64,000 nucleotides of DNA from a phage. Positions 19,355 through 52,421 of this stretch are shown one piece after another. A program made the translations under genes and the position numbers. The notes under the pieces are model-generated. The model did no database searches and had not been told where the DNA came from. It was given only the letters and a program-made list of their open reading frames with translations. Each line of letters starts with the position of its first letter. The stretch's first letter is position 1. Location: the sequence record PZ452611.1. One strand, 5' to 3'.

Positions 19355-19383
19355 TTGACTTTACTCTAAATCTCCGATATAGT
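19355..19383 (+). promoter_or_regulatory. sigma70-like promoter for + strand replication-module operon
   Basis: TTGACT - 17 nt - TATAGT about 40 nt upstream of ORF 19424 in a divergent intergenic region. Confidence 0.55.
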
Positions 19384-20968: not shown

Positions 20969-21225
20969 TGAAAGTGCAGATCTTGACTAATGCCGAGAAG
21001 ATGTTTATTGAAGATACACCTTTTGAAGCTGGTGAGCTACAGTTTGTTTATTTTGTTGACTTAGATAAGGTGTTTCCTGCACTGAATCTGGGTCTGGATG
21101 AAGTTCCTCATAAGGTTTTGTGCCAAGTTGTTCGTGCCTTAGCGGCAGATGGAGAGTTCCACACCCTTCAAGATATCCAGACCTACGGGTATCTTGAACT
21201 ACAACGAGAAGAAGAGGTGGACTGA
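20968..21225 (+). CDS. hypothetical protein
   Basis: 85-aa ORF, RBS gaggag upstream. Confidence 0.45.
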   Translation: MKVQILTNAEKMFIEDTPFEAGELQFVYFVDLDKVFPALNLGLDEVPHKVLCQVVRALAADGEFHTLQDIQTYGYLELQREEEVD

Positions 21226-21227
21226 TA

Positions 21228-21608
21228 ATGGCCCGGTGGAAGACAACAGTTGACCTGCATGATCAGTGGTTAGGACGCATCACTGAAGACGGGAAACTAG
21301 TGGAGTGGGACAATAAGCATGTTAGCGAGTTGGCAAGCATTGTGGCTGGCAAGTTACGCTCCAAGTTCCCTGAACAACTGGATCCTGATAGTTCAAAGTT
21401 CGATCCTGAGTTGGAGGATGTTGTATACTACTTCGACACCGTTGATGACTACGACGCGTGGTTTGCAGCACGGGAGCTTTACCCACAAGGCTCTGCTATG
21501 CGTCAGATGGAAGAAGATTATCCTCCGTGTGAGCAATTCAATAGTGCAATGACTTGCCTCTATGATTGGGCAGATAAGAACCTTGTCTGGATTCGGACTG
21601 CATTTTAG
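21228..21608 (+). CDS. hypothetical protein
   Basis: 126-aa ORF. Confidence 0.45.
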   Translation: MARWKTTVDLHDQWLGRITEDGKLVEWDNKHVSELASIVAGKLRSKFPEQLDPDSSKFDPELEDVVYYFDTVDDYDAWFAARELYPQGSAMRQMEEDYPPCEQFNSAMTCLYDWADKNLVWIRTAF

Positions 21609-21652
21609 TGGGCAGGAATGGCGGCAAGGATGCTGCTTAAGGAGTAGTAGAG

Positions 21653-21922
21653 ATGTTATACCAGCAATATGAACTTCGTGCAGAAAAAGAGTTAAATTTT
21701 GACAAAGATATTCACAGATATTATTATGGGAAAGTTAGAGGGCAAGCAAGAAAGTGTACTCCAACACTCTTTTATGCCAGCAGACGACTAGCGCCAGAAG
21801 AGGCAACAGCAGAAAGGGTTGCGTACAACTGGAGAGTCACGTATGATATTGACAGATCCGATGTGATATCTGTTTTGGAAAACTTTGAAAACACTTACAC
21901 ACAAGTAGAGGACTTTTACTAA
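21653..21922 (+). CDS. hypothetical protein
   Basis: 89-aa ORF, RBS aaggag upstream. Confidence 0.45.
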   Translation: MLYQQYELRAEKELNFDKDIHRYYYGKVRGQARKCTPTLFYASRRLAPEEATAERVAYNWRVTYDIDRSDVISVLENFENTYTQVEDFY

Positions 21923-23106
21923 TGTCAAGAAACGTATTCGAAAGTGGTCAAATCACTGTCCGTGAGTTGCCAGCTATTATTCAGTTTGCCCAACGTCATA
22001 GCCGATCTGTCCTAATTTTGGGACCAATGGGTGTGGGTAAAAGCCAGGTGATGAAGCAGATCGCTGATAATATGTTCGGTGAGCGAGATGACAACCTTGT
22101 TGACGTGCGACTGTCAGATAAAGATCCTGCCGACTTATCTGGGCTACCTATCCCTGTAGAAGCGGATGGAACTACACGTACAGTGTTTGCAATTCCAGAA
22201 TTTTGGCCTGCGGATCCTGACTGGAGCGGAATTATCTTTCTGGATGAGCTCACTCATGCAGATAACTACCTGCAAAAGGTTGCAATGCAAATTATGCTTG
22301 ACCACAAGTGCGGTACCTATGCATTCCCTAAGGGTTCTGTTTTTGTGGCTGCTGGTAACCGTTCTACAGATGGTGCGGTTCTTTCGGCGCTCGAAGCCCC
22401 TCTGGCTAACCGTTTTATCATTGTAGAGGTTACAAGCAATGCAGAGGTGTTTATTGAGGACTACGCATTCCTTAATGGGGTGCACTCCTCTGTAATTGGA
22501 TATCTGAAAAGAGTTCCATCAGCTATCGATAATTATGAGGCCATGGCTGAGATTAATTGTCCATCTTTTGCCACACCGCGATCTTGGGTTGCTGCATCTG
22601 ATATCTTGCACGATTTTGACAGCGGTATTATTTCTGACGCTATGGCCCGTGTTCTTCTGCAAGGTGCTATTGGTCACACTGCAGCGGTAGAGATCTGGAC
22701 TTACCACACCAAGAAACGCAACTTACCGGAAATCGGTCGGATTATGGCAGGAGGTTGCAAAGAATACGTAGGTCCTAAACAGCCAGACATCTTGTGGATT
22801 CTTGGATCTGAAGGTTGCATCGCTATTCGTAATATGATGGAAAATGCAAGTATCTCCGACGAAGATCTTGTTAGCTGTGTGGCAAACTTTCTCGATTTCC
22901 TTTGGGAAAACTTCAAGGACGAGAACCGAGATTTTGTATTTTCAGTCTTTATGGCGATGATGAAACCTAATGCCTTAGGAAATGCCTTGCTTATCGGTAA
23001 AGGTCGTGACAAGATCGTTGCTCAGCTGATCAAAGCATACCCAAACCTGATGAAGATTGTAAAAGAGTTTGGTGAAGAGTTTAGCGCCATTTTGGCTAAA
23101 GCTTAA
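21922..23106 (+). CDS. AAA+ ATPase, MoxR/CbbQ-like
   Basis: 394-aa ORF; Walker A LILGPMGVGKSQ, Walker B IIFLDELTHA, downstream sensor/Arg-finger-like region (AAGNRSTDGAVL); size and motif spacing typical of MoxR-class ATPases. Confidence 0.65.
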   Translation: MSRNVFESGQITVRELPAIIQFAQRHSRSVLILGPMGVGKSQVMKQIADNMFGERDDNLVDVRLSDKDPADLSGLPIPVEADGTTRTVFAIPEFWPADPDWSGIIFLDELTHADNYLQKVAMQIMLDHKCGTYAFPKGSVFVAAGNRSTDGAVLSALEAPLANRFIIVEVTSNAEVFIEDYAFLNGVHSSVIGYLKRVPSAIDNYEAMAEINCPSFATPRSWVAASDILHDFDSGIISDAMARVLLQGAIGHTAAVEIWTYHTKKRNLPEIGRIMAGGCKEYVGPKQPDILWILGSEGCIAIRNMMENASISDEDLVSCVANFLDFLWENFKDENRDFVFSVFMAMMKPNALGNALLIGKGRDKIVAQLIKAYPNLMKIVKEFGEEFSAILAKA

Positions 23107-23115
23107 GGAGGTTGT

Positions 23116-23496
23116 ATGGCTAAAGTAGGTAAGCGGGGAAACTACCTGGTGGTATTGACCGAGGAGCCGGAGAAGGAGTACGAATGCAGCTCCACTTGCG
23201 TGATCGATATCCGAGAAAAAGATGTAGATGAAATCTGGTTTAAAATATTGGACGCTTGCGACAGCAGTGATTATTTCTTCATCTATGTCAACGATAAGGC
23301 TGGGTTCTTCCATGACGACGGAGAGTTGCCGTATGAAATCTATGAACTTGTAGAGGCTTGCCATCGTGGAGATGCGGAGTTGTTTGGCTTACGGCTGAAA
23401 AGCGGTAAATTCTTCTATCAAGATGAGTGCATGAATCTTCATAACTTTGTAGAGGGAACTTGCAACGATGGAGAGATTTTGGCACACTACGATTAA
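23116..23496 (+). CDS. hypothetical protein
   Basis: 126-aa ORF, RBS aaggagg upstream. Confidence 0.45.
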   Translation: MAKVGKRGNYLVVLTEEPEKEYECSSTCVIDIREKDVDEIWFKILDACDSSDYFFIYVNDKAGFFHDDGELPYEIYELVEACHRGDAELFGLRLKSGKFFYQDECMNLHNFVEGTCNDGEILAHYD

Positions 23497-23509
23497 TTTC
23501 TAAGACCTC

Positions 23510-23536
23510 CCCCGCTTCGGCGGGGATTTTCTATTT
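23510..23536 (+). terminator. putative intrinsic terminator
   Basis: CCCCGC-ttcg-GCGGGG tetraloop hairpin followed by ATTTTCTATTT. Confidence 0.6.
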
Positions 23537-23545
23537 GGAGTTATT

Positions 23546-24046
23546 GTGAAAATTAAGATCTTTGCTATTATTTTGAGCGCATTTTTATCGCTGCCTGTTG
23601 TTGCAGCACCAAAACAAAAAGTATACCATACTTGCAAGCCATCAGATACTAAGGAAAACATTCTAGCATGCAATATCTACAGGGAAGCTAGAGGGGATGG
23701 CACGATGGGTATGCTGGCATCTGGGTTTGCCACCCTAAACAGGAAATCTCACCCCAAATACCCAGACACCATAAGAAAGATTGTCTACCAACCTAACCAG
23801 TTTTCGTGGACAAACCACGGCAAAACTTTTAAGGTGACAGAAAAAGATTCATGGGATCACGCTAAAAGTCTTGCAAAGATGCTTCTAAAGGTCTATAATA
23901 ACAACCATGTTGCATACATGGCTATGGACATAACAGGTGGAGCAACACACTACCATACAACCAAAGTACGACCGAAATGGGCAAAAAAGATGCAGAGGAC
24001 AGCTCAATTCGGGAGCCATATCTACTACAAGGAGCGCAATAAATGA
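23546..24046 (+). CDS. SleB-like cell-wall hydrolase with N-terminal signal peptide
   Basis: 166-aa ORF (GTG start after ggag); N-terminal MKIKIFAIILSAFLSLPVVAAP signal-like segment; NIYREARGDG...LNRKSHPKYPDTIRKIVYQPNQFSW matches the conserved core of the SleB/Hydrolase_2 family. Confidence 0.55.
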   Translation: MKIKIFAIILSAFLSLPVVAAPKQKVYHTCKPSDTKENILACNIYREARGDGTMGMLASGFATLNRKSHPKYPDTIRKIVYQPNQFSWTNHGKTFKVTEKDSWDHAKSLAKMLLKVYNNNHVAYMAMDITGGATHYHTTKVRPKWAKKMQRTAQFGSHIYYKERNK

Positions 24047-26025
24047 TTGTAAACAGTAATGAAACTAAAGCAGTGCTAACCGGAAATATGGAGGTCACCA
24101 GGGGCTCAATTTCTCTTAACAAAGAGACTTTTGGGCTAATCATTAAAGGGATTTACGAAGATAAGGTGCTGGCAAGCTGCCGTGAACCAATCTTCAATGC
24201 TGTGGACTCTCATGTTGAGTCTGGACGGGGTGATGTGCCGATCATTATTCACTCTCCTACAGACCTTGAACCATACTTCTTTGTGCAGGACGTTGGATTG
24301 GGCATGTCAGAAGAGATGGTCCGCAACACTTTCATGAACCTCGGTGAGTCAACCAAGCGCAACAGCAACGCTCTGGTTGGCAATAAAGGTGTTGGTTCAA
24401 AGGCTCCGTTCAGCATGGTGGACACTTTCGATGTTATCAGTGTGCACAATGGTATTGAAAGCACATATCTATTGTTCTTGGATCAGGGTATCCCAAACGT
24501 TACCAAGATCCGCGAGCGGAAGACTGAAGAGCACAACGGGGTAAAAGTTCAGTTCCATGTTAAGAAAGAGCATGTCCTGAAATATCGCACTGCTATTGCA
24601 TCGTGCTTACGCTATGCGAAGTTTCCGTTCATCGTCACCGATCCCATGACCAGTAAGATGTTAGAAGGTGACAAGGTTGAGGCACAGTATCATTACGAGA
24701 AGGATGGCTGGAAAATGACCATCCTGAAAGGTTATACCAGTTCTGATGAGAGCCGTGTTGTGATGGGTCACCAACCTTACCGCTCCAAGTTCCTGGAGAC
24801 ATTGACCGATTACCCTGCAATCTGCGTGGAAATTCCTATTGGGGATTGCAATATTAACCCTGGGCGTGAATGGACCATAGAGGGCCATGACGACGGTGGA
24901 TTCCAGGATCGCCTGGAGGCATTTGTCAAAGAAGGTATACGTCTTCGCGGGGCAGAAGTTGTTGCAGAACTGGAGACGGCAAAAACCTCCGCAGAAGCAC
25001 GTGAAATGATGAAGAATAGTGGAGTGTTCGGACACATCTTCGGCAAGAACTTTATGTGGAACCGTTGGGAAGAAACAGGGCTTGGCGACTTAGGCGATTG
25101 TGAAATTTTCGCTGGCGGCTTAAATAAAGGCCGCATAGGCTATGCTCGTTACGGAAAGTCGGAGTTCTTACGAGGTGTATACCTTGTATTTAACGACGGA
25201 GACGGCAAATATAACCGGAATAAGTGTAACTACTTAAGCGAGATCACCGGACGCAACGTTTTCTATTGCCGGAACACGGATCTGGTGAAAGAGTTTAAAG
25301 AGGCGGCACACCATCCGTTCTTTGCAGATACGGTCAAATTGTTATCGGAGCTTCCACGCCGACCTGCGAAGAAAGGTGAAACCAAAACTCGTTACGAGCC
25401 AGGCTACTGGGTTAAGAAGCTTAGAGAGGATGGCTACTTCCATCGTGAGCGCCTCACGAAGGCAGAGTTCAAGAAGATTAAGCATTGCATCCCTTATGAG
25501 GGGGATATCCAACGGGGAAGCTGCTGGCTGGGCCAGATGAGTAACATCTACCAGCAAAATTATGACCGTGTGCGTGCTGCACTCCAGATTCCTGAAGGTG
25601 AAGATCTGTACCTGGTATCAGAATCTCGTCTGCTTTGGACTGATCCTGATTGCCAGTATGTTACAGAGAAGAATGTGGAACATTTGTTGAAAGAGGATGC
25701 TTGGAAATTCTTACTGACTCGCGCAGCAAATGAAACTTCATATGACAGCCTGTATAGACAATTAGGGAAAATTATCCCCATGCAGGATTTTGGAAATTAT
25801 CGGCCACATTTCCACAAGTGGGAAGGTAACACCGCGTGGAAGCACAGTGAGCTAAATCATCGTGCCAAAATCTTAATCGCCAACCGGGTTAAGTGCGGGA
25901 AGGCCTATATTGCAAGATTGGAAAAGAAATATCCACTTTTGAAGCATGTGGGCTTGAAATATTGGGACACTCCTGCTATGATTGAATACCGTGAACTGAT
26001 CGATACAAAGAATAACATCAAATAA
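24043..26025 (+). CDS. rIIA: rIIA-like protein
   Basis: 660-aa ORF; N-terminal GHKL/HATPase-like region (REPIFNAVDSH...DVGLGM...GNKGVGSKAPFSMVDTF) with the layout recalled for phage T4 rIIA; immediately followed by an rIIB-like gene. Confidence 0.7.
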   Translation: MIVNSNETKAVLTGNMEVTRGSISLNKETFGLIIKGIYEDKVLASCREPIFNAVDSHVESGRGDVPIIIHSPTDLEPYFFVQDVGLGMSEEMVRNTFMNLGESTKRNSNALVGNKGVGSKAPFSMVDTFDVISVHNGIESTYLLFLDQGIPNVTKIRERKTEEHNGVKVQFHVKKEHVLKYRTAIASCLRYAKFPFIVTDPMTSKMLEGDKVEAQYHYEKDGWKMTILKGYTSSDESRVVMGHQPYRSKFLETLTDYPAICVEIPIGDCNINPGREWTIEGHDDGGFQDRLEAFVKEGIRLRGAEVVAELETAKTSAEAREMMKNSGVFGHIFGKNFMWNRWEETGLGDLGDCEIFAGGLNKGRIGYARYGKSEFLRGVYLVFNDGDGKYNRNKCNYLSEITGRNVFYCRNTDLVKEFKEAAHHPFFADTVKLLSELPRRPAKKGETKTRYEPGYWVKKLREDGYFHRERLTKAEFKKIKHCIPYEGDIQRGSCWLGQMSNIYQQNYDRVRAALQIPEGEDLYLVSESRLLWTDPDCQYVTEKNVEHLLKEDAWKFLLTRAANETSYDSLYRQLGKIIPMQDFGNYRPHFHKWEGNTAWKHSELNHRAKILIANRVKCGKAYIARLEKKYPLLKHVGLKYWDTPAMIEYRELIDTKNNIK

Positions 26026-26035
26026 GGAGACCAAG

Positions 26036-27241
26036 ATGATTTTCATCTACGAACATTTCAAAACCCGTAAAGAAGCACGAGACCGCCGTGCAGAACTTGA
26101 GAAGAAGGGTTTCACATGTGCCATTGAGAAAGGCGACACAACCTGGACACTGGCAGTTGGTGCCCCAGAGTTGTTCGATCCTGACCGTGACAGCGTCTGC
26201 TACACCCGTGAGGATTTTGAAACCCGCGAAGAGGCCCGTTTATTTCGATACGGTCTGGAAGATAACGGTAAGTACGCTATGATCTTAGATTTAGGCGAAG
26301 GTTCCGTTAAACGTTGGGGCGTGGTATACCCACTGTGTGTTGTTCACGGTGTGGGGTTCACTGGGGTAGCAATCAAGTCAGAAGAACCTTTAGTAGAAGT
26401 CAAAGATCCGGTGCTGGAGGTGGTGAGCAGTGTGTCTCAGCAACAGACTCGAAGCATCGAGCCTTTGGTAGTTATTTGTGGTGAACTCCTCCAGATCACC
26501 TGCAACGAAGGCATTTTTGAAATTCGCCGCAGCGAAAGTGAGGAAGTTTACCAGAAAGTCTTCGACCATATCTCTGTTCAGGAATATGATGAGGCAATTG
26601 GTGAAATCCTTGTCTGGCTGGAACGCAAGAATGAGTTCACCACACTTGCAGACAACCTGATCATGAAAGATGGTAAGCTCTACTACTACGGTGTAGAGAT
26701 GCGATCCACCATTGCAAAGAAAATTGAGAAAGATTATGCAGACGGAACGCTGGATGACCGCTATGTGAAATTCCTCGTTCGCCTGCTACGCAATCCTTCT
26801 GCAAAATCTGTAAACATGCTCTACGATTTTATGCAGGCCAACGATATCCAGATTGCAGAAGATGGTCGAATCATTTGCTACAAAGGGGTTCAGTTTAACG
26901 GCAGCAAGTGGGTGGATTGGCACAGTGGTAAAGTTCCACAATACCAGGGTGCTTTTGTATCCATGCCTCGTAACTTTGTAGAGGATGATCCGGAAGCTGC
27001 GTGCTCCTATGGCTTACACTGCGCCAGCAAAGAGTATGCAAAGAGCTACGGCACTGTAATGACTGTTATGGTTGATCCTGCAGATGTGGTTAGTGTGCCA
27101 TACCAACACAATAGCGCTAAGTGCCGTGCATGCCGCTATGAGATTGTGGTAGCTCCGGAAGCACGCAAAGATGGAGACCCTATTGAATATGTAGTTGATC
27201 GTGACGGTAACACTATCGACATTCTTTACGAGGAGGCGTAA
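26036..27241 (+). CDS. rIIB: rIIB-like protein
   Basis: 401-aa ORF; C-terminal segments LYDFMQANDIQIAEDG, GLHCASKEYA and VDPADVVSVPYQHNSAKCRACRYEIV parallel conserved rIIB blocks as recalled from T4 rIIB. Confidence 0.7.
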   Translation: MIFIYEHFKTRKEARDRRAELEKKGFTCAIEKGDTTWTLAVGAPELFDPDRDSVCYTREDFETREEARLFRYGLEDNGKYAMILDLGEGSVKRWGVVYPLCVVHGVGFTGVAIKSEEPLVEVKDPVLEVVSSVSQQQTRSIEPLVVICGELLQITCNEGIFEIRRSESEEVYQKVFDHISVQEYDEAIGEILVWLERKNEFTTLADNLIMKDGKLYYYGVEMRSTIAKKIEKDYADGTLDDRYVKFLVRLLRNPSAKSVNMLYDFMQANDIQIAEDGRIICYKGVQFNGSKWVDWHSGKVPQYQGAFVSMPRNFVEDDPEAACSYGLHCASKEYAKSYGTVMTVMVDPADVVSVPYQHNSAKCRACRYEIVVAPEARKDGDPIEYVVDRDGNTIDILYEEA

Positions 27242-28611
27242 TGGAAAAAGGGCAGTATGATGTAGGCACAGATGCTGCCCTCGTTGCAATCATGAGCGGT
27301 GAGAATGTCTTCGTTTCAGGACCCGCAGGTTGTGGGAAGACGTACCTCATCAACATGATCCAGTCAATGTATGGAGACTCTTGCATAACGGTTGCCCCGA
27401 CAGGGGTAGCCGCTTTAAACGTTAATGGAGCAACAGCACACCGAACCTTCGATCTTGCAGCAGGTGTGAGCATGGAGTCGGACTGGACCGCAATAAGGGC
27501 AAAAACAGCAAAGCCTTTGAAAAGCAAGGCATTTACCATCCTAATTATCGATGAAATCTCTATGATCCGTGCTGATAAGTTTATAGAGATGGATAGGAAA
27601 CTCCGCTTCCTTCGAAAAAATGACAAACCTTTCGGGGGCATACAGGTCATATTGTTTGGCGATTTTTACCAGGCACCTCCTGTTGTCTCTTCTATGGAGA
27701 AGGAAGCCTACTTCAACTTCTACCATACGGACCTGTGTTGCTATACCGAATCTTGGAAAGAGCTTGACCTCCACAACATAGCCCTAATAGATCAGTTCCG
27801 ACAGGAGTCTATTCGATTTGCTACAATGCTCAACTGTGTTCGTGAGGGTCGTCGCATAAAAGAGGTTGTAGCAGAACTTAATGCTCGCTGTTACAAAGGA
27901 GGTGTACCAACAGACGCTCTCACAATTTGCGCCACCAACAAACAAGCAGAGGAAGTGAACAGAAGGTTCTATGATGCCATCAACGCCCCAGAGAAGGTAT
28001 ACACTGGTGAAATGAAGGGTAAGTTTCCCTCCACCCTGCCAGTTGAGCAGGAGATGAAGTTGAAAATTGGCATGAAAGTTATGATAACCGCCAACGATGT
28101 TGACCCGACGCACAAAGTACCTTATTATGTTAACGGAACACGTGCTACAATTGTTAAATTTAAGAACAAGGCGGTGGTGGTAGAGCTTGAAGATGGAACA
28201 CAGGTTGACATAGAGCAGAGGTTGTGGGAGAATAACGAGTATAAGCCATCTCAGAGATACAACATTGCAGAAAGGAAGATGGAGAAGTTTATAGAGAGGG
28301 TAGTGATTGGGTCATACAAGCAACTTCCTCTGAAATCTGGGTACGCCGTAACATCTCATAAAAGTCAAGGACTTACACTAGATTGTTACAACCTAGACCT
28401 TGGAAAGAACGGAGCTTTCTCTCCTGGGATGACGTATGTCGCTTTGAGTAGAGTTAAGACAATACAAGGAATAAACTTGTTGCGTCCACTAAGAGAGGTT
28501 GACATTATTGTTGACCCGCGAGTCGTAGAGTTTTACAATACAACATTCCCTGACTTAGACAAAATTGTCAGGAAAGATTTTGAAACCAGAGCAGAAGAGG
28601 GGGACGTATGA
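27241..28611 (+). CDS. SF1B DNA helicase, Dda/RecD/Pif1-like
   Basis: 456-aa ORF; Walker A GPAGCGKTY, Walker B ILIIDEISMI, helicase motif VTSHKSQGLTLD, C-terminal LSRVKT. Confidence 0.7.
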   Translation: MEKGQYDVGTDAALVAIMSGENVFVSGPAGCGKTYLINMIQSMYGDSCITVAPTGVAALNVNGATAHRTFDLAAGVSMESDWTAIRAKTAKPLKSKAFTILIIDEISMIRADKFIEMDRKLRFLRKNDKPFGGIQVILFGDFYQAPPVVSSMEKEAYFNFYHTDLCCYTESWKELDLHNIALIDQFRQESIRFATMLNCVREGRRIKEVVAELNARCYKGGVPTDALTICATNKQAEEVNRRFYDAINAPEKVYTGEMKGKFPSTLPVEQEMKLKIGMKVMITANDVDPTHKVPYYVNGTRATIVKFKNKAVVVELEDGTQVDIEQRLWENNEYKPSQRYNIAERKMEKFIERVVIGSYKQLPLKSGYAVTSHKSQGLTLDCYNLDLGKNGAFSPGMTYVALSRVKTIQGINLLRPLREVDIIVDPRVVEFYNTTFPDLDKIVRKDFETRAEEGDV

Positions 28612-46303: not shown

Positions 46304-46599
46304 TACTTGAAAATTCCTGGCATATCAAGTATAAGGGGGATTTCTAAAATGGATTTCCTCCTTTTGATATTTCACCGGGCTGGATATTTTAAAATTCTTA
46401 GAAAATCAGAAAATGGATCGAAAACTAAAATGGATTTTTTCAGCACAGGCGCGGAAAATTGTGCCAATCTATCTAGCCGTTTGCACCATATTCGAGATCA
46501 CCGTTCCAGATTTCCCACACATACACACCTCTCCACCATACCTTTCTCCACTCACTCTTAGTGATTTATGACGGAAAACCCATCGCTATCAGTGAGTTG

Positions 46600-46800
46600 C
46601 GGTACAATTTTTCCAGTACTCGATCTACTTTTCATCTCATGGCTTGGATTTTCTGAAAATTTTTCTCGATAAATTTCTCAGTACTCGATCTGTTTTTCGT
46701 TTTCTGAATCGGATTTTCTGGAAATCGTTCCGGAGCTCGACCTGAAATTTTTGGGGACGAAATCGATTTTTCGTTTTCAGAAATGGATTTTTAAAATTTC
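46600..46800. repeat. tandem degenerate ~55-bp direct repeats (3 copies)
   Basis: units containing tt(c)cagtactcgatct...ttttc...ggattttctg(g)aaa repeated head-to-tail; no ORF >60 aa with RBS. Confidence 0.6.
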
Positions 46801-46899
46801 TATATGGGAATATTTTATGGGATACTGTTTTATAGGAAATTGTTACGGAGGGTAATTAGCATGCTAACTAAATTTATGAAATGCGAAAAGTTCTCATTT

Positions 46900-47230
46900 A
46901 GAATTTTGAATGATAATCATTCTCGTTTGCAGAATAACGGGCACCCCCGGTGATTGTCTCCCGGCCCCTACTGCCCCGGCTTGTTATTATAGTAACACAC
47001 AGGACAAAGAAAGCAAGAAGTTTTTGCATAAATTTTTAGACGATAATGATAATCGTTCTCATTTTATGCAGCGCCCATCCCCGGTGGTTGTCTCCCCCGT
47101 CACCGGTGCCTGCCGTCCTTTCGATAGGTATATTGTGCCACCTGGCGGGGCCGCTGTCAACACTTTTCAAAAAATTTTTCTAACCTGATGCGCTAACCGC
47201 TGCAACCTGGCGGGGCCAGCCTGGCAGGAC
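46900..47230. repeat. direct repeats in non-coding region
   Basis: two copies of ~70-bp unit (gataatc(g/a)ttctc(g/a)ttt...cccc(c)ggtg(a/g)ttgtctccc) ~130 bp apart, followed by three acctggcggggcc motifs. Confidence 0.5.
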
Positions 47231-52049: not shown

Positions 52050-52421
52050 ATGGAATTTATTATTTTGGCTGTATTGGTTGCCTTGTTTAACGCCTGGATC
52101 GCTGGCAAGATGGGCAGATCCGCCTTTTTATGGTTTATTATATCTATTTTCCTGGGGGTGGTTGCAACTATTGTATTGGTTATCCTTGCAATTGTTGACA
52201 AGGGGAATAATAGAAAGGGTAAAGTATTTTCAGACCTGTACGACGCTCAAACGTTTGTCAACGCCTATTATAGTGATCTTCCAGTCTCCCTACGCTGCAG
52301 CTTGGCACAACAGGTTTTTGATGAGGCTAAAACCAGAGATCAAGCCCATGAGATATGTTTAACTGAGGCGGATCGCCTATTTGAGAGGAATAGAAAATAT
52401 GTGGGCCAACCGTTTAAATAA
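52050..52421 (+). CDS. membrane protein (two TM helices)
   Basis: ORF 51915-52421; ATG at 52050 preceded by aaaagagg; MEFIILAVLVALFNAWIAG and FLWFIISIFLGVVATIVLVILAIV hydrophobic helices. Confidence 0.5.
   Translation: MEFIILAVLVALFNAWIAGKMGRSAFLWFIISIFLGVVATIVLVILAIVDKGNNRKGKVFSDLYDAQTFVNAYYSDLPVSLRCSLAQQVFDEAKTRDQAHEICLTEADRLFERNRKYVGQPFK

Follow-up and report, generated by a model that had tools for sequence, protein, structure and literature searches.

A SleB-like cell wall hydrolase encoded upstream of rIIA in an rV5-like bacteriophage: a likely exported accessory enzyme rather than the endolysin

Background

Bacillus SleB acts specifically on cortex peptidoglycan that contains muramic-delta-lactam. 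Among phage enzymes that use the export machinery of their hosts, Lys44 of Oenococcus phage fOg44 is a Sec-cleaved endolysin, while P1 Lyz and phage 21 R are SAR endolysins; all three are the lysis enzymes of their phages and are encoded together with a holin or pinholin.

In this work we are presenting an analysis of a small SleB-like gene of E. coli O157 typing phage 5, an rV5-like Vequintavirus. The DNA analysed, further called the window, is a stretch of 64,000 nucleotides (record PZ452611.1). An earlier note, made from its letters alone, had described the product as a SleB/Hydrolase_2-type wall hydrolase with a signal-peptide-like N-terminus, and had suggested either a secreted or SAR-type endolysin placed atypically or a wall-remodelling enzyme used during entry or infection. 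The gene is the already known rV5 gene 2, whose annotation dates from 2013 and which appears in rV5 Table S3 as 'gene 2, cell wall hydrolase, 166 aa, 19052 Da, pI 10.0, PF07486'. The phage group also possesses a lambda-R-like endolysin, LysECP26, with muralytic activity in vitro (PMC9728275).

Results

Catalytic domain

Coordinates of the features are collected in Table 1. The hydrolase reading frame starts with GTG, and all alternative in-frame starts would lose the catalytic residue. Residues 51-161 of the product match Pfam Hydrolase_2 (PF07486) over profile positions 2-100 of 100, with E=2.1e-19 and 70.4 bits against a cut-off of 27; PHROG 938, named 'endolysin', is matched with E=1.7e-27. 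The SleB catalytic domains 4F55 and 4FET are the sole PDB relatives by sequence, and the same two structures were the only significant matches when the AlphaFold (AF2) model (pLDDT 87.8, with low confidence over residues 1-20) was compared with the PDB by Foldseek (probability 1.00, target-normalised TM 0.74-0.79, 24% identity). In alignment A1 Glu47 is invariant, likewise N43, Y45, Q85-T89, D128 and W145. A cysteine pair spaced by 12 residues, C30-C42, a candidate disulphide, is conserved in Vequintavirinae and Stephanstirmvirinae. The SleB equivalog model NCBIfam TIGR02869 gave 48.3 bits against a cut-off of 236.5, its match being confined to the catalytic part (model positions 83-201). The N-terminal peptidoglycan-binding domain is absent, and the signal peptide runs straight into the catalytic domain. 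The Pfam match, the 4F55/4FET relationship and the conserved Glu47 confirm the SleB/Hydrolase_2-type core of the earlier note and show a complete catalytic domain that has kept its catalytic Glu.

Table 1. Features of the hydrolase locus and the annotated holin gene, in positions of the window
Feature	Position	Strand	Basis or remark
Sigma70-type promoter P010 of rV5	19355..19383	+	exact match to rV5 Table S4 sequence
Rho-independent terminator-like hairpin, probable attenuator	23510..23536	+	terminator scan; equals rV5 t003
Shine-Dalgarno GGAG, 5-nt spacer to GTG	23537..23540	+	read from sequence; conserved in 7 orthologues
SleB-like / Hydrolase_2 wall hydrolase CDS, rV5 gene 2 orthologue	23546..24046	+	166-aa precursor, 19.05 kDa, pI 10.0
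Predicted signal peptide, codons 1-20, cleavage between VVA20 and A21	23546..23605	+	sequence anatomy, single candidate -3/-1 site
Glu47 codon, predicted catalytic residue, motif Y-R-E-A-R-G-D	23684..23686	+	aligns with E of YGESRGE in SleB 4F55/4FET
rIIA-like gene	24043..26025	+	phrog_612 E=4.6e-124, Pfam HATPase_c_3
rIIB-like gene, next in same gene run	26036..27241	+	phrog_609 E=1.3e-61
BASEL-type 'putative holin', two N-terminal TMDs	52050..52418	+	tblastn of bas59_0111, 98.4% identity

Signal peptide

The N-terminus, MKIK-IFAIILSAFLSLPVVA followed by APK behind the predicted cut, is composed of a basic n-region, a 16-residue hydrophobic core (62% L/I/V/F/M, 31% Gly/Ala/Ser/Thr) and a cleavage region with Pro at -5 and only one -3/-1 site, VVA/A; cleavage and likeness to SAR domains were both judged heuristically, by inspection. 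Removal of the signal peptide would give a mature enzyme of 146 aa, 16.9 kDa and pI 9.95. In comparison with P0002 the mature part is 85% identical, and the faster-diverging signal region 50%. For the collection of homologues a word-indexed search gave 10 proteins, and an exhaustive HMMER search was used instead. An N-terminal export segment was present in 9/9 homologues of six phage lineages, conserved in kind and not in sequence, and in 141 of the 148 full-length database representatives. For the Certrevirus homologue CB7_83 both a signal peptide and toxicity upon expression in E. coli ('data not shown') were reported (PMC7344957, 2020).

As judged from sequence features, the hydrolase is probably exported to the periplasm by means of a cleaved Sec signal peptide. 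The signal-peptide-like character seen in the earlier note is borne out by the tripartite n-h-c anatomy, and its 'secreted' option gains support from the canonical signal peptide and its recurrence among the representatives, while the 'SAR-type' option fits poorly with a strongly hydrophobic core of low G/A/S/T content and a clear signal-peptidase site.

Neighbourhood and expression signals

The gene belongs to the early/middle replication unit, where a MoxR-like ATPase stands on one side of it and rIIA/rIIB on the other; a hypothetical gene and a helicase are further neighbours. Promoter P010 opens this rightward unit about 4.2 kb upstream of the hydrolase gene. At 24043-24046 the sequence ATGA joins the ATG of rIIA to the TGA stop of the hydrolase. 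On the + strand no small membrane-protein ORF was found adjoining or inside the gene. Both the early/middle placement and the absence of an adjacent holin or spanin, claimed before from the letters alone, hold. An antisense ORF (23922-24143) contains two hydrophobic stretches and has no support. A SPOR-like peptidoglycan-binding domain at the N-terminus of rIIB was considered as a link in function to the hydrolase; its Pfam match is marginal (22.5-24 bits for a threshold of 21, over half of the model), no PDB sequence matched, and a single-sequence model had a pLDDT of only 46.

The hairpin preceding the gene (CCCCGC-TTCG-GCGGGG, then ATTTTCTATTT) stands 10 nt upstream of the start codon and is identical to rV5 terminator t003, for which dG of -16 kcal/mol was given. 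Its stem is kept in 7 Vequintavirus genomes, and hairpins of other sequence occupy the same position before the homologues of Hena1, KB57, CR9, VivaForever, ETEC-TG, PAK_P4 and Mendera. An extended fold around the hairpin, by which the ribosome binding site could be sequestered, had a z-score of only -1.07. The GTG start is conserved in 7 orthologues, the homologues of Hena1, KB57, VivaForever and ETEC-TG start with TTG, and several homologues have a sigma70-like promoter directly upstream. If the hairpin is an efficient terminator, very little hydrolase may be made. A search of the literature for a Vequintavirus transcriptome found none.

Conservation and distribution

The gene is full length in 116/116 Vequintavirus records, with DNA identity of 96-100% across the 116 genomes and dN/dS of 0.00-0.13, which indicates strong purifying selection; this pattern suggests that the hydrolase is still functional in nature and kept by selection. 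Within Vequintavirinae, rV5 gene 2 and the orthologues CB7_83, CR3_087, Bas54_0065 and FV3_00002 represent the same gene as that of the window. Those of Vequintavirus share with it the length, start codon, upstream terminator and rIIA overlap. The Certrevirus, Henunavirus and Mydovirus versions are about 50% identical and are directly followed by a small membrane-protein gene, which is absent in the window; Certrevirus, unlike the window, also has no rIIA/rIIB. Linkage of the hydrolase to rIIA was found within Vequintavirinae only (Vequintavirus, Henunavirus and Mydovirus) and was rejected as a general rule, as it fails in Certrevirus, Stephanstirmvirinae, T5-like, PAK_P, Mendera and Vibrio phages.

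More distant homologues, 33-40% identical and none of them linked to rII, are T5.083, PAK_P3 gp151, PAK_P4 gp154 and the proteins of Stephanstirmvirinae, Menderavirus and Vibrio phages. They too are Hydrolase_2 proteins of small size (149-186 aa) that begin with an export segment. Their genes stand among those for early functions, replication or nucleotide metabolism, at a distance from the endolysin gene that is linked to a holin in the respective phage. The PAK_P4 protein, unlike the hydrolase of the window, has an uncleaved-looking N-terminal anchor with no canonical cleavage site. The T5 homologue, T5.083, lies in the T5 early region, and transcription of PAK_P3 gp151 is equal early and late (log2FC 0.62, not significant). 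A conserved two-gene module of the upstream gp3 and the hydrolase, common to T5, was also considered and rejected: gp3 homologues (116 records, all at least 95% identical) come from Vequintavirus only. Table S3 of rV5 puts the T5.083 match on the gp3 row; because T5.083 itself is the hydrolase homologue, that table is probably shifted by one row.

Lysis genes and transposon data

The annotation of the near-identical phage Bas59 contains a separate endolysin (Bas59_0188), a spanin pair located beside the terminase and a putative holin. Among these lysis genes only the 'putative holin' falls within the window, approximately 28 kb from the hydrolase gene; the lambda-R-like endolysin gene lies outside it.

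Transposon insertion data (HIDEN-SEQ, preprint, two hosts) exist for Bas54 (MZ501093.1), which is 98.4% identical to the window and whose hydrolase differs by 1 amino acid. For the hydrolase gene bas54_0065, with 36 sites, the mean insertion counts were 916 on one host and 499 on the other (adjusted p = 1.0). Zero insertions were recorded in the endolysin gene bas54_0202 (24 sites), the i-spanin gene (29) and the o-spanin gene (18). The 'putative holin' bas54_0115 took insertions on both hosts (mean counts 430 and 602) and is dispensable, and so are both the rIIA-like and rIIB-like genes. On the two hosts these data made no role apparent for the hydrolase, an accessory role in lysis included. 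The small Bas54 genes bas54_0100 to 0102, which are free of insertions and whose positions fall in the window, were considered as the true holin and rejected, having no TMDs; they look non-coding and repeat-rich, and Rfam matches none of them.

In laboratory culture the hydrolase is dispensable for lysis, which is carried out by the separate endolysin. The earlier note had pointed to the rest of the genome as the place where a canonical lysis cassette should be sought, and the lambda-R-like endolysin and the spanins are indeed encoded there. Its proposal of an endolysin placed atypically is not supported, because this separate endolysin is present and the hydrolase gene is freely disrupted on two hosts.

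Discussion

Taken as a whole, the results make it likely that the gene encodes an accessory peptidoglycan-cleaving enzyme which is exported independently of any holin and is not the endolysin of the phage. From the options of the earlier note, a wall-remodelling enzyme acting during infection is the one that survives, as a proposed role. According to the explanation that we propose, host RNA polymerase would transcribe the gene from early in infection, and read-through of the terminator together with the weak start codon would hold its dose low. The precursor would be exported by SecYEG and cut by signal peptidase I behind Ala20, giving in the periplasm a basic enzyme of about 17 kDa, presumably a lytic transglycosylase-like cleaver of glycan strands, which may nick or remodel the sacculus during infection. 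Lysis proper would be left to the lambda-R-like endolysin and the spanin pair encoded elsewhere. As the hydrolase is dispensable in culture and yet kept by selection, its benefit is presumably conditional, and could depend on host physiology or wall chemistry, on how efficiently cells that do not grow are lysed, or on the presence of competing phages.

It is also conceivable, if unlikely, that the hydrolase is no lysis factor at all and acts as an early periplasmic effector altering the wall for another purpose. The purposes considered are the exclusion of superinfecting phages, a disturbance of competing phages or of host responses linked to the wall, and release of wall precursors as a form of auxiliary metabolism. 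The early/middle placement and the early-type promoters of several lineages agree with this, an auxiliary role of the enzyme PAK_P3 gp151 was put forward to account for the build-up of cell-wall precursors in infected cells (PMC4933390), and dispensability in pure culture combined with strong selection is what accessory or conflict genes usually show; disruption of the hydrolase, however, caused no fitness change on the clinical isolate CFE303. Such effector roles are compatible with the accessory-enzyme explanation.

We regard as quite improbable the idea that the gene is a relic or back-up of an ancestral pair of signal-peptide lysin and small membrane protein, made redundant once the lambda-R-type endolysin had been acquired and now contributing marginally. 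In its favour, the gene order hydrolase, small TM protein, rIIA-rIIB, helicase, the middle members being variably present, is a backbone conserved among the genera of Vequintavirinae, and Vequintavirus alone lacks the small TM gene. Members of Certrevirus, moreover, all have the SleB-like gene but differ in their second wall hydrolase, which is an M15 peptidase in some and lysozyme-like in others. The low dN/dS and the retention in every Vequintavirus genome nevertheless speak against decay, and the T5-like, PAK_P-like, Stephanstirmvirinae and Mendera homologues have no adjacent membrane protein.

That the hydrolase is the real or a co-equal lysis enzyme, Sec-secreted or SAR-type and waiting in the periplasm to be unleashed upon depolarisation of the membrane by a holin or pinholin, we hold to be very unlikely, and the transposon data have already largely refuted it: Bas54 with a disrupted hydrolase gene propagates on two hosts, and the endolysin and spanin genes carry no insertions. 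A signal sequence joined to a muralytic fold would suit such an enzyme, the PHROG and many GenBank records name the gene 'endolysin', the annotated Vequintavirus 'putative holin' is dispensable, and the small proteins encoded immediately downstream in Certrevirus (65 aa, 2 TMDs), Henunavirus (77 aa, 2 TMDs) and Mydovirus (51 aa), as beside the hydrolase homologues of CB7, Hena1 and KB57, resemble class II holins or pinholins. In the window, however, no membrane-protein gene is adjacent, the N-terminus is, unlike SAR domains, strongly hydrophobic with a canonical cleavage site, and the gene belongs to an early/middle unit.

A virion-associated lysin digesting the wall at DNA entry is scarcely credible: in other phages, large proteins of the virion or ejected from it can contain Hydrolase_2 domains, and tblastn matches include 'DarB-like antirestriction' proteins, the phrog_938 profile being 2185 positions long, but the gene lies outside the structural module, no hydrolase peptides were among the 19 proteins detected in rV5 virions by mass spectrometry (Table S5), the CB7 paper names CB7_83 in its lysis section only and not in its virion-proteome section, the tail module has lysozyme-like proteins of its own, and use during entry, as the earlier note had offered, is disfavoured because a Sec signal peptide would remove the protein from the cytoplasm, where virions are assembled.

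A broader and more speculative generalisation, which we put forward with considerable doubt, is that large virulent phages of Gram-negative hosts commonly possess a class of early periplasmic effectors made up of small exported Hydrolase_2 enzymes, dose-limited by a terminator hairpin directly upstream and weak start codons and selected for a conditional function. Its proposed members come from Vequintavirinae, Stephanstirmvirinae, T5-like, PAK_P-like, Menderavirus and Vibrio phages. Such a class may make it possible to lyse cells that do not grow or are heavily cross-linked, or may form an envelope-integrity module with the adjacent small membrane protein and rIIA/rIIB.

The case carries a caution for annotation, as the 'endolysin' label used by PHROGs and in many GenBank records stands here on a gene that is not the lysis enzyme. 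Pipelines and enzybiotic screens choosing this hydrolase as "the" endolysin would be misled, because a separate enzyme does lysis. A second wall hydrolase that is secreted, early-expressed, dispensable in culture and yet under strong purifying selection is kept by many large lytic phages with no relation to one another. The reason for its retention is directly testable in a near-identical phage, for which clean genetics and a transposon library are available.

Comparison with known systems

With Bacillus SleB, a germination-specific lytic transglycosylase, the hydrolase shares the catalytic fold and the catalytic Glu motif; it differs in having no N-terminal peptidoglycan-binding domain, no spore or muramic-delta-lactam context, and a Gram-negative host. 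Given the substrate specificity of SleB, it is by homology that the hydrolase is presumed to act on E. coli murein, and by homology that its cleaved bond is predicted. Ladybird PF07486 proteins, which affect B. subtilis, provide the only experimental hint of this fold acting on vegetative walls.

The LysECP26-type endolysin (rV5 gp89, Bas54_0202) is the wall-degrading enzyme that the same genomes also encode, and unlike the hydrolase it has a lysozyme-like fold, is 62% identical to lambda R and has no signal sequence. From a canonical holin-dependent endolysin the hydrolase is set apart by its export signal, by the lack of a lysis cassette around it and by the tolerance of its gene to insertions. 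The rV5 virions yielded no gp2 peptides and the gene stands in a replication unit, which separates it from virion-associated lysins.

Like Lys44 and the SAR endolysins, the hydrolase is a muralytic-type enzyme with predicted Sec export that needs no holin; unlike them, it is dispensable, has a different fold and is encoded in an early/middle unit. The composition of its N-terminus is not that of SAR endolysins, its signal being cleavable in appearance, and no pinholin stands alongside in the window. The type whose features it does display is that of Sec-secreted enzymes, with a tripartite signal peptide which obeys the -3/-1 rule and is conserved in kind among its homologues.

Hydrolase gene and its locus

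The open reading frame with a signal-peptide-like N-terminus and a SleB/Hydrolase_2 core, claimed in the earlier note, was found exactly at 23546..24046, with Pfam, Foldseek and N-terminal composition in agreement. Its orthologue in rV5, gene 2, has the entry 'cell wall hydrolase, 166 aa, 19052 Da, pI 10.0, PF07486' in the 2013 genome paper (PMC3606486 Table S3). The region matches E. coli O157 typing phage 5 (KP869103.1) at 100% identity, and ~120 rV5-like Vequintavirus genomes at 97-99%. Given the position of rV5 promoter P010, the gene lies ~4.2 kb from the start of a rightward unit with sigma70-type promoters, which runs on into primase and DNA polymerase genes. The early/middle-region placement given in the note is correct; the gene stands between a MoxR-like ATPase and rIIA/rIIB. 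An antisense ORF of 73 aa with two hydrophobic segments, within the hydrolase 3' end, is most likely spurious, because every neighbouring gene is read from the + strand and the great majority of substitutions are synonymous in the + frame.

Features of the hydrolase locus, of other parts of the window and of related phages
Feature	Source	Position	Strand	Remarks
Promoter P010 of rV5	window	19355-19383		sigma70-type
MoxR-like ATPase	window	21922-23106	+	
Hypothetical gene	window	23116-23496	+	
Spacer ahead of hydrolase	window			49 nt; contains GC-rich hairpin with T-run
GC-rich hairpin with T-run	window	23510-23536		rV5 terminator t003, dG -16 kcal/mol (PMC3606486 Table S4)
GGAG Shine-Dalgarno	window	5 nt upstream of hydrolase start	+	read from sequence
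Hydrolase CDS	window	23546..24046	+	166 aa, GTG start
Antisense ORF	window	23922-24143	-	
rIIA	window	24043-26025	+	ATG overlaps hydrolase TGA as ATGA
rIIB	window	26036-27241	+	helicase gene next
Imperfect repeats	window	46606-46791		three copies of 47-60-nt unit, spaced 65-74 nt apart
Further repeats	window	within 46341-47217		four copies of TTTCTAAAATGGATTT; further repeat pairs up to 47217
BASEL-type 'putative holin'	window	52050-52418		123 aa, two N-terminal TMDs
Downstream small membrane protein	CB7 (Certrevirus)			65 aa, 2 TMDs
Downstream small membrane protein	Hena1 (Henunavirus), L005	4511-4744		77 aa, 2 TMDs
Downstream ORF, unannotated	KB57 (Mydovirus), L004	4536-4688		51 aa; in hydrolase-rIIA gap at end of linear record
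Downstream ORF	CR9 (Certrevirus), L013	3450-3713		one TM-like segment; internal ATG about at hydrolase stop codon

Catalytic domain and export signal

GTG is the only sensible start, because the next in-frame Met (residue 54) would remove the catalytic residue. The protein matched Pfam Hydrolase_2 (PF07486; E=2.1e-19, 70.4 bits against a cut-off of 27) and PHROG 938 'endolysin' (E=1.7e-27), and by sequence its only solved relatives are the Bacillus SleB catalytic domains (4F55, 4FET). Its motif Y-R-E47-A-R-G-D aligns with YGESRGE of SleB, E47 being the predicted catalytic residue. AlphaFold, run with an alignment of 10 sequences, gave a confident model of mean pLDDT 87.8, with low values over residues 1-20, as expected for a signal peptide, and Foldseek against the PDB returned only SleB 4F55/4FET (probability 1.00, target-normalised TM 0.74-0.79). 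Assignment as a SleB equivalog was rejected, since the TIGR02869 score of 48 bits lies below the 236.5-bit cut-off and the match was confined to the catalytic half of the model. The hydrolase is a Hydrolase_2 member and not a SleB equivalog, canonical endolysin, signal-anchor-release (SAR) endolysin or virion lysin.

The N-terminus reads MKIK / IFAIILSAFLSLPVVA / APK, with a basic n-region, a 16-residue core (62% L/I/V/F/M, just 31% G/A/S/T), Pro at -5 and one site alone fitting the -3/-1 rule, VVA20|A21. Such a composition is consistent with a cleavable Sec signal peptide and not with a SAR domain; the predicted cleavage would give a 146-aa, 16.9-kDa enzyme of pI 9.95. A hydrophobic export segment starts 9/9 homologues from six phage lineages, with AXA-like sites in most. 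An exhaustive HMMER search gave 11,334 clusters at E<=1e-3, and among the 150 closest representatives the segment was present in 141 of the 148 full-length sequences. Compared with an 81%-identical relative, identity was 50% in the signal region and 85% in the mature region; the export feature is conserved in kind, not in sequence. The signal peptide of the Certrevirus homologue CB7_83 was reported independently by Buttimer et al. (PMC7344957).

Role in entry and in lysis

Use during entry, one of the roles proposed in the earlier note, is unlikely, because Sec export takes the protein out of the cytoplasm, the site of virion assembly; none of its tryptic peptides was found in rV5 virion mass spectrometry (19 proteins detected).

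The enzyme is not the phage's lysis enzyme. Bas59, a relative 99.4% identical to the window over 21000-27500, carries annotations for an i-spanin/o-spanin pair beside terminase, an endolysin of 159 aa, a 'putative holin' and two tail-module wall hydrolases; among its lysis genes only the putative holin maps inside the window. LysECP26, purified from an rV5-like phage, is a lambda-R-like lysozyme-fold endolysin without signal sequence which lyses Gram-negative cells (PMC9728275). Saturating transposon mutagenesis (HIDEN-SEQ) was reported in a 2025 preprint for Bas54 (MZ501093.1, phage MaxBurger), in which gene lengths and spacing are the same as in the window, DNA identity over the hydrolase gene plus spacer is 98.4% and the two proteins are alike but for one residue. 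There, zero insertions were obtained in the endolysin (24 sites), i-spanin (29) and o-spanin (18), and the SleB-like hydrolase gene was dispensable (bioRxiv 10.1101/2025.11.20.689424), the very outcome named beforehand as refuting a misplaced endolysin.

The Bas54 counterpart of the putative holin tolerates insertions (mean 430 and 602 over 27 sites; same preprint), and this BASEL-type protein is probably not the sole holin, or not the true one; the candidate of the rV5 paper is a different one, gp129 of 78 aa (PMC3606486). A gene for a small membrane protein stands immediately 3' of the hydrolase homologue in three sister genera, which makes it possible that a 'secreted lysin plus pinholin-like partner' pair existed in an ancestor; the Vequintavirus window holds no counterpart of this gene.

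Conservation and expression

The gene is full-length in 116/116 Vequintavirus records. Over seven orthologues spanning the available divergence dN/dS was 0.00-0.13, and the GTG start, GGAG and hairpin stem were each kept; against the relatives FV3, JEP1 and YP-6 there were 18 synonymous and 0-1 non-synonymous differences. The gene is not junk: it is under purifying selection despite its dispensability in Bas54. Homologues occur in every Vequintavirinae genus (PMC7344957), and also in Stephanstirmvirinae, T5-like Demerecviridae (T5.083, 40% identity, E=6e-25), Pakpunavirus, Menderavirus and Vibrio phages. In all of these phages they are located among early, replication or nucleotide-metabolism genes, apart from their own phage's holin-linked endolysin. 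Transcript levels of the PAK_P3 homologue gp151 were similar 3.5 min and 13 min into infection (log2FC 0.62, not significant), and the study's authors put it forward as an auxiliary enzyme that would account for the build-up of wall precursors.

A GC-rich hairpin with T-run directly 5' of the gene was noticed in Vequintavirus, Henunavirus, Mydovirus, Certrevirus, two Stephanstirmvirinae, PAK_P4 and Mendera, the hairpins of different lineages being unrelated in sequence. In several lineages a sigma70-like promoter follows right after it (TTGCAA-17-TACAAT or TATACT in Stephanstirmvirinae), with similar elements upstream of the homologue in CR9, Mendera and Vibrio phage F95. GTG or TTG starts 5/10 family genes examined, and CB7_83 was reported toxic in E. 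coli (PMC7344957). Taken together, these features suggest that selection favours making a potentially dangerous exported enzyme early but in small amounts. A literature search for a Vequintavirus transcriptome found none.

In some GenBank records, those of JEP1 (L016) and YP-6 (L019), the hydrolase is annotated at locus positions 309-650 from an internal ATG (342 nt, 113 aa), an artefact which loses the conserved GTG start, signal peptide and Glu47 and also explains 111-aa database entries. Sixteen Campylobacter jejuni-labelled 'Campylobacter phage' records (MG0656xx, e.g. MG065659.1) share 97-100% identity with this E. coli Vequintavirus over the region and are probably mislabelled hosts or contaminating coliphages. 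Additional file 3 of the rV5 paper (PMC3606486) places the T5.083 BLAST hit (6e-22) in the row of gene 3, for which T5 has no homologue; T5.083 is homologous to gene 2, the hydrolase, so the table is probably off by one row.

Neighbouring genes and the repeat-rich stretch

In Bas54 the counterparts of the MoxR-like ATPase and of the helicase after rIIB (from 27241) are dispensable on E. coli K-12, yet both become essential on clinical isolate CFE303, their insertion means falling from 148.7 to 0.0 and from 202.2 to 1.5, respectively (bioRxiv 10.1101/2025.11.20.689424), which suggests host-specific, possibly counter-defence, roles for genes flanking the hydrolase-rII block. The first ~130 residues of rIIB (26036-26437, residues 1-134) fall outside PHROG rIIB profiles. 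Residues 8-42 queried alone gave a marginal match to half of the Pfam SPOR (peptidoglycan-binding) model (22.5-24 bits against a threshold of 21), with a similar repeat after it by eye; this N-terminus has no signal peptide and its single-sequence model had pLDDT 46.

The repeat-rich stretch at 46341-47217 maps to bas54_0100 to bas54_0102, three small 'genes' with almost no transposon insertions (bioRxiv 10.1101/2025.11.20.689424), no TMDs and a non-coding appearance. GC skew collapses at 46-48 kb, and an Rfam search of the stretch gave no match. One possibility is that the stretch is essential and acts in cis, for instance as an iteron-bearing origin.

Proposed mechanism and relation to known systems

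What can be read from the sequence is a complete SleB-type domain with its catalytic residue behind a canonical Sec signal, in an early/middle unit, preceded by a terminator and begun by a weak start codon. We infer that the precursor would be exported through SecYEG and its signal cleaved after Ala20. The mature enzyme would then cut periplasmic glycan strands in the manner of a lytic transglycosylase, at a dose tolerated by the cell, so that the sacculus would be nicked or remodelled during infection with no holin needed. For this exported wall hydrolase, which is widely conserved yet dispensable in the laboratory, candidate natural benefits are quicker or more dependable lysis of cells that are non-growing or heavily cross-linked, phage exclusion or competition, and precursor release.

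The finding is real but already known: the homologue's signal peptide, subfamily conservation, unusual position and toxicity were published in 2020 (PMC7344957), and gene-level dispensability data exist too. A phage lysin survey counts Hydrolase_2 among catalytic domains typical for phages of Gram-negative hosts, and the pattern of a 'second SleB-type lysin far from the holin' has already been noted for T5-like and Phapecoctavirus phages.
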